Assembly: GCA_947303905.1 (NCBI GenBank)
Contig: CAMYZR010000001.1
Span: forward strand, 1-33,990
Direction: 5' to 3'
Length of the DNA: 33,990 bases
Source of the DNA: an uncultured Atopobiaceae bacterium
GTDB lineage: Bacteria > Actinomycetota > Coriobacteriia > Coriobacteriales > Atopobiaceae
Below, in pieces: positions 4,170 to 23,232 of this stretch; the first letter of the stretch is position 1, and each line of letters opens with the position of its first letter. A program made the position numbers and the translations under genes. Under the pieces are notes generated by a model, which saw only the letters and a list, made by a program, of their open reading frames with translations, was not told the DNA's origin and ran no database searches.

Positions 4170-4908
4170 CGGAAGGGCCCTGCGTGTGGTGCATCTCTAT
4201 CCGGAGCTGCTCAACCTCTATGGGGACTCGGGCAACATCTTGGTGCTCAGGCGCCGCATGGAATGGAGGGGCATCTCCTGCGAGGTGGAGGAGGTGCACA
4301 CCGGTGATCACCCGTCATTCGTCGACGCGGACATCGTGTTCATTGGCGGTGGTTCAGACCGCGAGCAGCGGATCGTCTGCGACTATCTGCTCGAGGTCCG
4401 CCGCGAGCTTGCGGCCTTCGTCGAGGATGGGGGCGTGCTCGGGGCGGTCTGTGGCGGCTACCAGCTCCTCGGCCACAGCTACCTCATGGGCGACGAGGAG
4501 GTGCGCGGGCTCTCGCTCGTCGACCTCTACACCGACCGCGGAACGCCGCGCCTCATCGGAAACATCGCAGTGGAGAGTCGCATCTCGCCACAGCCCATCG
4601 TTGGCTTCGAGAACCATGGCGGGCGCACGCACTTAGGCCCAGGGGTCGAGCCTATGGGCAAGGTGCTCCATGGATACGGAAACGATGGCACGACCGGCGA
4701 GGAGGGCTGCCTCTACAAGAACGTGGTGGGCACTTACGTGCATGGGCCGCTGTTGCCCAAGAACCCTGGCGTTGCCGACTATCTCATCGCTCGTGCCCTG
4801 GAACGCCGCTTTGGCGTGGCTGAGCTGGAACCGCTGGACGATGCGGCAGAGCTTGCGGCGAACAAGGTGATGTACGACCGTCTGATGGACGAGGAGGCCA
4901 GGGGCTGA
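4162..4908 (+). CDS. gatD: Lipid II isoglutaminyl synthase, glutamine amidotransferase subunit GatD
   Basis: Matches: LRVVHLYPELLNLYGDSGN, GAVCGGYQLLG (nucleophile Cys), YVHGPLLPKNP. The ATG at 4162 is M59 of track ORF 3988-4908 and overlaps the murT stop by 8 nt. This is the usual murT-gatD coupling. Confidence 0.88.
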   Translation: MGSGRALRVVHLYPELLNLYGDSGNILVLRRRMEWRGISCEVEEVHTGDHPSFVDADIVFIGGGSDREQRIVCDYLLEVRRELAAFVEDGGVLGAVCGGYQLLGHSYLMGDEEVRGLSLVDLYTDRGTPRLIGNIAVESRISPQPIVGFENHGGRTHLGPGVEPMGKVLHGYGNDGTTGEEGCLYKNVVGTYVHGPLLPKNPGVADYLIARALERRFGVAELEPLDDAAELAANKVMYDRLMDEEARG

Positions 4909-4957
4909 CGGCACGCCGTTGCGTCTTACCGTTCTCCAAGACGTAACATGACGTGGG

Positions 4958-4985
4958 TTGACATCTCCTAGTACTTCGGTAGGAT
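4958..4985 (+). promoter_or_regulatory. Putative sigma-70 promoter (TTGACA-16 nt-TAGGAT) driving the cysK leader
   Basis: A perfect -35 TTGACA sits at 4958-4963 and TAGGAT at 4980-4985. The predicted transcript start at about 4992-4993 coincides with the ATG of the short ORF at 4993, making it leaderless. Confidence 0.45.
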
Positions 4986-4992
4986 ATTCCAC

Positions 4993-5076
4993 ATGAAGTC
5001 TTTGGCGAACATATTCCGCTGTTGTTGCACATGTGCCGTGCCCGGGTCTGGTATGGCCTGCCGCCGCACACGTTAG
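4993..5076 (+). CDS. 27-codon polycysteine leader ORF (MKSLANIFRCCCTCAVPGSGMACRRTR), probable cysteine-sensing leader peptide
   Basis: I translated it by hand: ATG 4993 to TAG 5074-5076. Cys codons are TGT TGT TGC (5020-5028), TGT (5032-5034) and TGC (5059-5061). There is no SD, and the ATG sits at the predicted +1. The ORF lies between a promoter and an intrinsic terminator, directly upstream of cysK. Confidence 0.5.
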   Translation: MKSLANIFRCCCTCAVPGSGMACRRTR

Positions 5077-5133
5077 GCGGGCCAAGGCTCGGGCGTAAAG
5101 CCACTCCCCCCTCACATAGAGTCCAAACCGCGT

Positions 5134-5169
5134 GGGCAGGTGCCCACGATGGTACCAACCTGCCCTTTT
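5134..5169 (+). terminator. Intrinsic terminator/attenuator in the cysK 5' leader
   Basis: GGGCAGGT (5134-5141) pairs with ACCTGCCC (5158-5165), followed by TTTT (5166-5169). The cysK SD AGGAGG (5170-5175) comes immediately after. A competing local hairpin exists: CGTGGGC (5131-5137) / GCCCACG (5142-5148). Confidence 0.6.
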
Positions 5170-5180
5170 AGGAGGCACCC

Positions 5181-6092
<912 letters not shown>

Positions 6093-6126
6093 CCACCGAG
6101 GGGACTCATCACAGCTGATTGCCGTT

Positions 6127-6181
6127 GACGGGTCGCGTTGCCTGCGGTTATGGCCACGGGCGACGCGACCCGTCCTTTTTT
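6127..6181 (+). terminator. Rho-independent terminator of cysK
   Basis: A 12-bp perfect stem, GACGGGTCGCGT (6127-6138) / ACGCGACCCGTC (6163-6174), is followed by a T6 run (6176-6181). Confidence 0.8.
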
Positions 6182-6332
6182 GCCTCGATCTTCCGCGCAC
6201 CTCAAACGAGTCGCCGCATCCCCTCAAACCACCGACAAAGCGCATCGGGCTGCTGGTGGAGCCTCGGCTAACTTATCGCGTCTTGTCATCTATGATGGGG
6301 ACGTGCCTTCGCACGCACCACAATCACGTACG

Positions 6333-8390
6333 ATGGGGGTCCCCGTGGACGCAAACTCTCGCAGCATCCTTGGCCTGATCGCCGAAATGAACACGCGCTT
6401 TGTCGTACCGGTCTACCAGCGTCCCTACTCGTGGGGCGAGCAGCAGTGCCTCCAGCTGTGGGACGACATCCTGGCCTGCGGCAGGCAGCGGGAGAACTTC
6501 CACTTCACCGGCTCGATCGTGACCATCCAGGACGGGAGCATGTCCGAGCAGGGTGTGACGCCGCTTCTGCTCATCGATGGCCAGCAGCGCATCACCACCA
6601 TCACGCTTCTGCTGATCGCCCTTGCTCGCCTCGTCGACAAGGAGCAGACCGACCTGCCCTTCACGCGCGAGGAGATCGTGGACTCGGGCTATCTCACCAA
6701 CCATTTCCGGACGGGGGCCGACCACTACAAGCTCACGCTCTCCAAGACCGACCAGCCGGCACTGCGCTCGCTCATCGACAACCTCGAGGACCCTGCGGTG
6801 CCGGTGGAGACCACCTCCGAGCGCCTCATGGAGAACCTCGCCTTCTTCGAGCGGCGCGTGGAGGCGCTCAGCGACATCGCATCGGTCTGGGCGGGCCTGC
6901 AGCGCCTGGAGGTCGTCTCCATCGCGCTCTCGCAGGGCCAGGACAACCCGCAGGCCATCTTCGAGTCGATGAACTCCACCGGCAAGGACCTCTCCTCGGC
7001 CGACCTCATCCGCAACTTCGTCCTCATGGCCTATCCCGTGGCGGAGCAGTACGACATGTACCAGACCTACTGGCGTCCCATCGAGCAGATCCTGGGCGCC
7101 GATGCCTACGGCGGGACCTTTGACGACTTCATTCGCAGCTACTTCACCGTTGCCTACGCGCCCGAGTCGATGGCCAAGGCTGACGTGTACCAGACCTTCA
7201 AGCGCTATGTGCTGTTCAATGGCTACCACCGCAACGACCGCATGAAGAACCTCTCGCTCAAGGTCAAGCGCTTTGCCGGCTACTACGCGCGCGTGACCAC
7301 CGGCGAGGTGGACGACGCGGAGGTGGCCGAGGTGCTGCACCGGCTGTCGCTGCTCGACATGCCGGTGATAAACCCGCTGCTTCTGGCGCTGTTTGACAGC
7401 TACGACCACAAAGCGCTGTCGCGCGAGGAGTTCTTGGACATGGTGGCGACCATCGAGAGCTACCTCTTGCGCCGGGCGGTCTGCGACTGCGAGACGAGCG
7501 TGCTGTCGCCGTTCGTCGCCTCGCTGATAGCCCGCCTCGATGCCGTGCGCAGCGAGGGCGGCAACGTGGCCGAGGCACTGCAGGCGATGCTGCTCAACGA
7601 GGCGGGCACCCCCAGGCGCTTCCCGACCGACGCTGAGTTCGGCCGTGCGCTCGCCACGCGCGACTGCTTCGGGTTCTCGCGCGTGTTCTACCTGCTGGCG
7701 CGCCTCGAGGGTGGCATGGGAGGCTGCTGCCTGCCACGCAAGGGCAGCTGGACGGTCGAGCACGTGATGCCCGTCCATGCCGTGAGCGACGAGGGCTGGG
7801 CCGAGGTGCTCGGTCCGGACGCCGAGCGCGCCTTCGAGGAGACGGTCAACAGCCTGGGCAACCTCACCCTGACGACCTGCCTCTTCGATCTGCAGGACGC
7901 AAGCTTCGCCGACAAGCGCGAGCGCGTGCTAGGGGCGCAGGGAGATGCCCGCTTGGCCATCTCGCAGGCCATCGTCGAGGCAGAGACGTGGGGCCCCGAG
8001 CAGATTCGTACGCGCACGCAGGAGCTGGTGGACGAGGCACTCGGCCTTTGGACCATTCCCGACCTGCCTGAGGAGGCCTGTCGGGCCTATCGTCCGTCCC
8101 GTCGCGCTGCGGCAGGGGAGCAGGCGAGCTTCTCCGACCTCTTCGAGGCCGGCCTCGTGGAGATGGATGACGTGCTGGCCAGCGCGAACCCGCTCTACCC
8201 GGGCAAGGCCACCGTCACCTCGCGCGGCAAGATCATGCTCGCCAACGGCGAGATGTTCGACGACCCGACCGAGGCGTACGAGCGCTTCCTCGCCATGCAG
8301 GGAGCGCTGGTGACCGGCCTCAACGGCTGGATGTACTGGCGTCGCGGCGAGGGCGGGCCGCTGCTCGACACGCTGCGCGAAGGCCTCTAG
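6333..8390 (+). CDS. GmrSD-like DUF262 (ParB-like NTPase) / DUF1524 (His-Me finger nuclease) protein with a C-terminal RAMA-like domain; probable type IV (modification-dependent) restriction or other defence nuclease
   Basis: DUF262 motifs: VPVYQRPYSW and LLIDGQQRITTITLLL. DUF1524 motifs: WTVEHVMPVH...VNSLGNLTLTT...ASFADKRE. The last ~100 aa (FSDLFEAGLV...GKATVTSRGKIMLANGEMFDDPTEAY...LNGWMYWR) resemble the RAMA domain. The start is ambiguous: ATG 6333 has no SD, and in-frame GTG 6345 is preceded by GGGGG. A possible -10 TATGAT lies at 6290-6295. Confidence 0.8.
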   Translation: MGVPVDANSRSILGLIAEMNTRFVVPVYQRPYSWGEQQCLQLWDDILACGRQRENFHFTGSIVTIQDGSMSEQGVTPLLLIDGQQRITTITLLLIALARLVDKEQTDLPFTREEIVDSGYLTNHFRTGADHYKLTLSKTDQPALRSLIDNLEDPAVPVETTSERLMENLAFFERRVEALSDIASVWAGLQRLEVVSIALSQGQDNPQAIFESMNSTGKDLSSADLIRNFVLMAYPVAEQYDMYQTYWRPIEQILGADAYGGTFDDFIRSYFTVAYAPESMAKADVYQTFKRYVLFNGYHRNDRMKNLSLKVKRFAGYYARVTTGEVDDAEVAEVLHRLSLLDMPVINPLLLALFDSYDHKALSREEFLDMVATIESYLLRRAVCDCETSVLSPFVASLIARLDAVRSEGGNVAEALQAMLLNEAGTPRRFPTDAEFGRALATRDCFGFSRVFYLLARLEGGMGGCCLPRKGSWTVEHVMPVHAVSDEGWAEVLGPDAERAFEETVNSLGNLTLTTCLFDLQDASFADKRERVLGAQGDARLAISQAIVEAETWGPEQIRTRTQELVDEALGLWTIPDLPEEACRAYRPSRRAAAGEQASFSDLFEAGLVEMDDVLASANPLYPGKATVTSRGKIMLANGEMFDDPTEAYERFLAMQGALVTGLNGWMYWRRGEGGPLLDTLREGL

Positions 8391-22681: not shown

Positions 22682-22701
22682 GCTTTGCTCCTTGCTGTCT
22701 C

Positions 22702-23232
22702 CTAGGAAGCGACTGCGCGCATCTTGGCCATGGCGCGCGAGAGCTTGGTTGATATTGTCGATGCGTTCATGCCCATAATCTGGGCGATTTCGGTGTTACG
22801 TAGCTGTTCGTAGTACTTGAGGTATACCAGCTGACGCTCCTCGTCGTCGAGTGTCGCGAGCAGCTGCGAAGCGAGCTCGGCGTCGCCAATCTGGTCGGTC
22901 TCGGCCTCCTCCGCGTAGGCGCCTTCGGCGATGTCCTCGATCGGGACGTTTTCGGGCGTGCGCGAGAAGTAGTCGCTGATGCAGTTGTTGGCAATCGAGA
23001 TGACCCAGGTGGAGAACTTGGCACGTGTGGGATCGAAGCGGGAGAAGTAGCGGGCGGCACGCAGGTACGCCTCGGAGGTGATGTCCTCGGCGGCCGTATG
23101 GTTGCCCACGCGGCGGAAGATGTAGTTGTAGACCATGGAAAAGCTTTCGCGGTAATAGCGCTCGAAGTCGCGATGCATGTCCCGCTTGTTGTCGCCACCT
23201 TCGACCAGTCTGAATCTGCTCGCTCGTGCCAC
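22702..23232 (-). CDS. ECF-type (sigma-70 family, regions 2 and 4 only) RNA polymerase sigma factor
   Basis: Region 2: YRESFSMVYNYIFRRVGNHTAAEDITSEAYLRAARYFSRFDPTRAKFSTWVISIANNCISDYFSR. Region 4: ERQLVYLKYYEQLRNTEIAQIMGMNASTISTKLSRAMAKMR. The GTG start at 23232 follows GAGG. ATG 23178 is an alternative start. Confidence 0.85.
   Translation of the reverse strand: MARASRFRLVEGGDNKRDMHRDFERYYRESFSMVYNYIFRRVGNHTAAEDITSEAYLRAARYFSRFDPTRAKFSTWVISIANNCISDYFSRTPENVPIEDIAEGAYAEEAETDQIGDAELASQLLATLDDEERQLVYLKYYEQLRNTEIAQIMGMNASTISTKLSRAMAKMRAVAS

Follow-up and report, generated by a model that had tools for sequence, protein, structure and literature searches.

Comparative analysis points to a cysteine-codon leader ORF and a candidate promoter operator ahead of cysK in uncultured Atopobiaceae

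The cysteine synthase gene cysK of an uncultured Atopobiaceae bacterium (GenBank assembly GCA_947303905.1) lies in the first 33,990 nucleotides (nt) of contig CAMYZR010000001.1, a stretch that we call the window and whose forward-strand numbering is used throughout. Between the gatD stop codon (4906-4908) and the cysK ATG at 5181 there is a 272-nt gap, which holds a promoter, a short open reading frame (ORF) rich in cysteine codons, and a leader. Comparison with related loci supports this ORF well as a cysteine-sensing leader of cysK, and we regard that role as probable. It appears that two sensors are placed in series before cysK, namely, a candidate operator within the promoter and the leader ORF behind it. 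A preliminary description of this DNA had read the region as a trpL/hisL-type attenuator; the leader ORF enriched in Cys codons stands, and the intrinsic terminator before cysK does not.

The promoter consists of the -35 hexamer TTGACA (4958-4963), a 16-nt spacer and the -10 box TAGGAT (4980-4985), all on the plus strand like the short ORF, the leader elements and cysK, and it was the only sigma-70-like match in positions 4600 to 6400 (10 of 12 positions; 0.3 expected). Seven nucleotides, ATTCCAC, separate the -10 box from the ATG at 4993. The short ORF (4993-5076; 27 codons and a TAG stop at 5074-5076), which is predicted to be leaderless, encodes MKSLANIFRCCCTCAVPGSGMACRRTR and contains five Cys codons, four of them within codons 10 to 14 (TGT TGT TGC ACA TGT; 5020-5034), the predicted site of ribosome stalling. 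These features are all present as first described. The stop codon of the short ORF lies 104 nt before the cysK start on the same strand, and cysK has its own Shine-Dalgarno (SD) sequence, AGGAGG (5170-5175), of which GGAGG(C) is kept in all leaders. The gene itself (5181-6092) encodes cysteine synthase A (PF00291), whose closest matches, and nearest named relatives, are metagenome-assembled genomes (MAGs) of Atopobiaceae (Coriobacteriia) from ruminant and other gut samples.

We recovered 40 cysK loci encoding proteins 80 to 99% identical to the CysK of the window, of which 35 had enough upstream DNA and fell into 12 leader lineages. They were drawn from CysK relatives (80 to 97% identical), from a metagenome scan with the back-translated peptide FRCCCTCAVP, which added two loci only, and from a genome collection, which added one (L001). 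The same module was observed in 35 of 35 loci: TTGACA-16-TAGGAT, exactly 7 variable nucleotides, an ATG, an ORF of 26 to 34 codons, Cys at positions 11, 12 and 14, and a hairpin, P1. Every one of the 12 leaderless lineages has the same -35 hexamer and 16-nt spacing; C stands directly 5' of the ATG in 11 of them and T in one variant (L122), which places a purine start after a pyrimidine. From this conserved promoter geometry we infer that transcription starts at A4993 and that translation is leaderless. The gene upstream of the module varies (murT-gatD or an acyltransferase), which indicates that the promoter and leader move together with cysK, and in many relatives the operon reads short ORF-cysK-cysE. 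Two more distant Atopobiaceae-type loci, L002 and L005 (CysK 73 to 74% identical), lack the short ORF.

Within the ORF, Cys11, Cys12 and Cys14 are invariant among nine aligned peptide variants and in all 12 lineages. Examples are the leader peptides of L083 (MKTLAYIFRCCCTCAVPGSAMAHRRTR), L100 (MKTMANIFRHCCTCAVPEPSVAAGIAWR), L091 (MNTLANIFRCCCTCAMPGSVMAGRTVRCAARTRA), L105 (MLTMMDIAKACCTCSRPGSWVAGTCC) and L116 (MLRRTDILQRCCLCAMPGSAMAAGVMPSEAKARA). Codons 2 to 9 diverge strongly, and yet the Cys codons keep a constant spacing from the ATG, with zero insertions or deletions across lineages. Codons 10 and 12 alternate between TGT and TGC from lineage to lineage; codons 11 (5023-5025) and 14 (5032-5034) are TGT in every lineage, and TGT is the rarer codon in the genes of the window (16, versus 63 TGC). 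The fixation of the rarer codon at these two positions may reflect tuned stalling through wobble decoding or an effect on the weak helix P0 that surrounds the Cys codons. None of the nine peptide variants was on record in an exact look-up against a collection of 15 billion proteins, and leader ORFs of this kind are evidently still invisible to gene callers.

RNAalifold applied to 13 leaders gave two consensus helices only, P0 and P1. Hairpin P1 (5040-5094) has a 5' arm GCCCGGGTCT at 5040-5049, within codons 16 to 19 (GCCCGGGUCU in RNA), and a 3' arm AGGCTCGGGC at 5085-5094 (AGGCUCGGGC in RNA), and it begins 5 nt after Cys14 in all lineages. Pairing is kept in 94.7% of its alignment cells; G-U is replaced by A-U, and U-G by C-G or U-A, and no more than 11 of 500 shuffles equalled its covariation score. 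Translation of the ORF would end inside the P1 loop (26 to 28 codons; 5074-5076 in the window) or at a UAA right after P1 (34 codons). This second stop belongs to the conserved GTAAAGCC adjoining P1 (5095-5102), in which GCGTAA (GCGUAA in RNA) is invariant across the 13 leaders; our alignment A1 takes in the ORF core, P1 and GUAAAGCC.

P1 is followed by a C-rich, G-poor linker (5100-5129; 15 C and 3 G), which resembles both a Rho-loading (rut) site and an anti-SD (CUCC). In 14 of 14 leaders, the 30 nt in which C most exceeds G begin immediately behind P1; the C-minus-G excess ranges from 4 to 15 and is 12 in the window, and values of at least 12 occur in 0.16% of background stretches. Behind the linker, a second hairpin, P2 (ACCGCGTGGGC / aggt / GCCCACG-a-TGGT; 5127-5153), belongs to the minimum-free-energy fold, with an energy of -18.4 kcal/mol. 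Among the five closest lineages 94.5% of its cells are paired, three pairs have changed on both sides, and 3 of 500 shuffles did equally well. Across the leaders in general, the C-rich stretch is followed by a stable hairpin of variable sequence and then by the SD. In one relative, L086, the leader is a mosaic, in which promoter, ORF and P1 resemble the L100 lineage and P2, SD and cysK start resemble the L083 lineage; this suggests recombination inside the leader.

The preliminary description had placed an intrinsic terminator at 5134-5169, abutting the cysK SD and formed by GGGCAGGT (5134-5141; GGGCAGGU in RNA) and ACCTGCCC (5158-5165; ACCUGCCC in RNA) with TTTT (UUUU) behind them. A helix with a 16-nt loop and only four U is indeed there. 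However, the terminator scan was silent on it, although the same scan reported a stem at 6156-6175 with T6 after cysK (6156-6181), an example of a genuine terminator in this genome, and picked up canonical leader terminators in two other loci, L115 and L028. Its predicted energy is -15.4 to -17.5 kcal/mol, weaker than the overlapping, more local and mutually exclusive P2. No covariation was detected in the helix (70% of cells paired, with 471 of 500 shuffles as good), and the U-run is four in the window and L081 only, three in L001 and at most two elsewhere (9 of 12 leaderless lineages). From the missing scan call, the weak fold, the lack of covariation and the unconserved U-run we conclude that this leader does not have a classical terminator as its conserved output device, and the assignment of 5134-5169 as a terminator is probably wrong. 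Comparative support is needed before a hairpin with a few U beside an SD is taken for a terminator.

These results bear on attenuation of the trpL/hisL type, in which the helix and TTTT would terminate transcription when the ORF is translated fast and an antiterminator would form when the ribosome stalls. Besides the helix itself, this model could draw on P2, which overlaps and excludes the helix and could in principle be the antiterminator, and on the canonical terminators found in the homologous leader of L115 and in the Clostridial loci L028 and L057. Nevertheless, P2 would fold first, no upstream segment was found that could out-compete P2 and let the candidate terminator form, and we found no link between ribosome position and the choice of P2 or the terminator helix. 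Mycobacterial RNA polymerase, moreover, reportedly needs a U-tract for intrinsic termination. We therefore consider this type of attenuation unlikely here.

Upstream of the ORF, the analysis revealed an element that the preliminary description had missed. The sequence CTCCTAG-tacttcg-GTAGGAT (4965-4985) is a palindrome whose right arm is the -10 box, and its consensus in the clade is (AT)ATCCTAG-N7-CTAGGAT(AT), with both arms conserved and the 7-nt centre free. The left arm falls between the two promoter hexamers, in a spacer that a promoter by itself has no need to conserve. This is the sole good copy in the window; a weak copy with three mismatches (22688-22708), at the 3' end of a gene for an extracytoplasmic function (ECF)-type sigma factor (22702-23232, minus strand; PF04542, PF08281), is probably a chance match. 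When 300 nt upstream of cysK were examined in 80 diverse loci, the core TCCTA-N9-TAGGA (at most 1 mismatch) was found 13 times in 23.8 kb upstream of cysK versus 10 times in the other 404 kb, a 22-fold enrichment. The palindrome also precedes cysK in L001, L002, L005, L069, L018, L025, L063, L071 and others, and core sites occur upstream of cysK in MAGs of Lachnospiraceae, Oscillospiraceae and Ruminococcaceae and in many Firmicutes MAGs.

The palindrome is probably a repressor operator, most likely bound by a dimeric repressor at the -10 box. Its arms, (A/T)TCCTA...TAGGA(A/T), resemble the box of the Bacillus subtilis regulator CymR (Rrf2 family), and a CymR-like regulator is a guess. Ten small ORFs of the window and the neighbours of cysK in L002 and L005 yielded no Rrf2/CymR gene. 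Such a repressor might control cysK by itself, with the short ORF a by-product conserved for RNA stability, as initially transcribed sequence, or for P1. This would agree with the conserved arms and variable centre, with the enrichment of the core before cysK even in L002 and L005, which have no Cys ORF, and with the weak coding-type selection on the ORF. But it leaves unexplained why Cys is kept at codons 11, 12 and 14 in every lineage in a frame that never shifts, and why independent Cys-rich ORFs recur before cysK (L115 and Clostridia); an operator and an attenuator can also coexist. Control by the repressor alone thus seems improbable to us.

At the level of the peptide, conservation is fairly good in the core ANIFRCCCTCAVPG, and Pro17 is invariant; the C-terminal third varies in frame, length (26 to 34 amino acids) and sequence, and its nucleotides are conserved as the 3' arm of P1. 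Weak peptide selection, together with this changing C-terminal third over conserved nucleotides, fits a regulatory leader, for which nothing but start, frame and Cys codons would matter, and does not fit a functional micropeptide. A Cys-rich micropeptide (metal- or redox-binding, or the precursor of a modified peptide) merely co-transcribed with cysK is accordingly very improbable, since the conserved core and Pro17 that speak for it are set against the drifting C-terminal third, a ratio of nonsynonymous to synonymous polymorphism (pN/pS) near that of the other frames, the absence of adjacent modification or export genes, and a strict association with cysK or cysK-cysE.

We propose the following working model for the cysteine-sensing leader. 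Transcription would begin at A4993, so that the RNA starts with AUG and would be translated without a leader. When Cys-tRNA(Cys) is plentiful, the ribosome would clear codons 10 to 14, melt P1 and halt in the P1 loop, after which the leader would refold and cysK output would be low. When Cys-tRNA(Cys) is scarce, the ribosome would stall on the Cys codons, where its leading edge would touch the base of P1, bar new initiation at the 5' end and keep about 5005-5045 unfolded, and cysK expression would rise. For the output we rank control of cysK translation initiation first, as for Ms5788A in Mycobacterium smegmatis, then Rho-type premature termination through the C-rich tract (5100-5129), and last weak intrinsic termination at 5134-5169. 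In the window, masking by a stalled ribosome raised the predicted accessibility of the cysK AUG from 0.05 to 0.43-0.49, because ACAUGUGCC (5029-5037) otherwise pairs with GGCAC..AUGU (5174-5184) in the predicted ground state; a similar rise was obtained in 8 of the 12 lineages. Constrained folds with a stalled ribosome in the 12 lineages gave no consistent change in SD accessibility.

Several observations weigh against the leader as a cysteine sensor, or against this route of output. The rise in AUG accessibility was lacking in 4 of the 12 lineages. The duplex of the Cys tract with the cysK start is seen in the minimum-free-energy fold of the window, has a z score of about 0 versus shuffles, and is absent from 4 of 12 lineages. 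Long-range pairings of the Cys tract or either P1 arm with the start region, of the linker with the SD, and of the P1 3' arm with the linker or P2 region were none of them better than in shuffles (mean z, -0.4 to +0.6), and the pairing partner of the SD, judged from base-pair probabilities, differs between lineages. The folding energy of the whole leader is unremarkable (z = -0.79), and RNAalifold found no conserved structure downstream of P1. In six frames of the window, clusters of four Cys in five codons number 1 against 0.53 expected; the arrangement of -10 box, 6 to 8 nt, start codon and Cys-rich short ORF was seen one time, where 0.38 per window would be expected. Taken by itself, the Cys cluster is therefore not unusual, and the case rests on its position and conservation; no other polycysteine leaderless ORF was found in the window. 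In addition, pN/pS is 0.68 in frame versus 0.85 to 0.89 in the other frames, with no 3-nt periodicity, so the codon-level selection is weak and the conservation could partly reflect RNA or DNA constraints. Finally, the palindrome could by itself account for cysteine-responsive control, and more simply.

Other foldings were also considered. When folding was limited to the segment that begins where P1 ends and runs up to the SD, the SD paired with the CUCC of the C-rich tract in 10 of 13 leaders, as would be expected from composition alone. Unrestricted RNAduplex runs on long segments returned giant, meaningless duplexes. Switches of four or five segments built by hand from GCCC/GGGC motifs (P1, P2 and 5158-5165) each proved untenable because of their energy, their kinetics or the direction of regulation they would give. 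Among the pairings tested, none provided a structural switch by which stalling of the ribosome would conceal the C-rich tract.

The start of translation also deserves comment, as the short ORF had been described as having no SD. This holds for a transcript that starts at 4993. It does not hold for read-through RNA from gatD, on which AGGA within the -10 box (4981-4984), 8 nt 5' of the ATG, is a possible weak SD. The terminator scan detected no terminator between gatD and the promoter, so murT-gatD read-through transcripts could translate the short ORF in an SD-led manner.

Related leaders were found elsewhere. In a 41st locus, L115, whose CysK is 80% identical, the ORF (M)TLFANIARCQMCCRSARLSPVRRS, containing ..FANIARCQMCC.., is homologous to that of the window and has a GTG start and its own AGGAG SD. 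Its leader (1200-1500) carries the terminator GUGGCCC-gaga-GGGCCAC followed by UUUUGUUU (stem 1403-1422, then TTTTGTTT), and by sequence this locus belongs to the same peptide family with a different start mode and output device. Cys-rich leader ORFs unrelated to that of the window also precede cysK in L057 (Clostridia MAG, about 2204-2420), with a promoter matching 12 of 12 positions, an SD-led ORF MYGMMCCCQQSSCCGGQLCMAFHA and a 12-bp stem with U7 (-20.7 kcal/mol); in L028 (Oscillospiraceae, about 2140-2345), with an SD-led ORF MRRAIVNRMMCCDMCCERRVCFAIPI and then a 10-bp stem with a U-rich tail; and in L076 (Clostridia MAG), where an SD-led ORF lies upstream of 1498. These unrelated leaders indicate that Cys-codon leaders before cysK arose more than once.

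It is tempting to go further and suppose that one leader-peptide family has swapped its output device, being mostly leaderless with P1 and a C-rich tract and, in L115, SD-led with a terminator, and that unrelated attenuators exist in Clostridia as well; we hold this only tentatively. The phylum of the Clostridia is thought to rely on T-boxes and CymR, and a literature search returned no description of Cys leader peptides in Firmicutes. If the supposition were true, ribosome-based sensing of Cys-tRNA would be widespread and repeatedly evolved in anaerobic gut bacteria, on top of a shared CymR-like operator, and the leaderless clade would produce its output by a noncanonical route, such as Rho or pausing at P1. 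The Clostridial Cys leaders before cysK provide leads.

The closest functional parallel is found in mycobacteria, and the work cited for it in the preliminary description is correctly cited (Canestrari et al., Mol Microbiol 2020;114:93-108). In M. smegmatis, polycysteine leaderless ORFs de-repress downstream genes under cysteine limitation, and for Ms5788A translational occlusion was shown experimentally, with a polyCys:SD duplex defining the mechanism; in Mycobacterium tuberculosis, the polycysteine leaderless ORF Rv2334A precedes cysK1-cysE (Canestrari et al. 2020). Like the members of this "Cys ribulon," the element described here is an unannotated ORF at the predicted 5' end of an mRNA with at least 2 consecutive Cys codons, stands in an operon with cysteine-synthesis genes (cysK-cysE in many relatives, as with Rv2334A) and lacks an obvious terminator. 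At the level of sequence it thus falls in the mycobacterial polycysteine class, and the classical terminator is wanting. It differs in that its Cys codons lie in the middle of the ORF (codons 10 to 14 of 27 to 34) rather than at the C terminus and P1 follows at a fixed 5 nt, and, unlike the case of Ms5788A, a polyCys:SD duplex is not supported beyond chance and the promoter carries a candidate palindromic operator. The hosts differ too, being Coriobacteriia, anaerobic gut and rumen bacteria, and the likeness drawn here is one of layout.

Other systems share parts of this layout. Cys leader peptides were predicted for the cys operons of Mycobacterium and Propionibacterium acnes and for cbs of Bifidobacterium longum, and pyrimidine-rich spacers in the mycobacterial cys leaders were suggested as possible Rho sites (Seliverstov et al., BMC Microbiol 2005;5:54). 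Those leaders likewise have runs of Cys codons before cysteine genes, pyrimidine-rich spacers and no conserved terminator; in contrast to our case, each was predicted from a single genome, neither a leaderless start nor a conserved hairpin was reported, and Coriobacteriia are absent from the species list shown. In Rhodobacterales, a Cys-Cys upstream ORF (uORFC-8-2) and a terminator precede cysS (Brewer et al., RNA Biol 2021). With this element and trpL/hisL, our leader shares codons for the amino acid of the pathway in a short upstream ORF followed by hairpins; theirs, however, have an SD and a conserved terminator with an overlapping antiterminator, whereas here the start is predicted to be leaderless and the terminator is unconvincing. 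The dyad-symmetric site over the cysK promoter, with a core recurring before cysK, is like that of CymR/CysK repression in Bacillus and Staphylococcus. Leader ORFs control Rho-dependent termination in tnaC of Escherichia coli and mgtL of Salmonella; our leader resembles them in having a short ORF and then a C-rich, G-poor, unstructured tract, but no switch was found that hides the tract on stalling.

Regarding the surroundings of cysK, cysE is missing in the window and in L083, L087 and L105, where cysK has a terminator of its own and a GmrSD-type gene comes next (6093-8390 in the window). Many relatives (L091, L096, L100, L114 and L116 were compared) have cysK-cysE, in several followed by a GmrSD (DUF262/DUF1524, RAMA) gene. 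A search of 4850-5250 against all Rfam families, with E values up to 10, gave no match.

The novelty appears modest. The preliminary description considered such control not to have been described directly for cysK, which Rv2334A contradicts; the host group, Coriobacteriia (Atopobiaceae), does appear to be new. The element has local peculiarities in the constant distance that separates the predicted stall site from P1, in its C-rich tract and in the candidate operator that lies within the promoter. If our reading of the leader is true, the sensing of cysteine by ribosomes, for which mycobacteria have so far supplied the only proof, would extend to uncultured gut and rumen Coriobacteriia. In addition, a repressor operator and a translational sensor would be united in a single promoter region, giving cysK two separate read-outs of sulfur status, one through a metabolite or protein signal and the other through charged tRNA.

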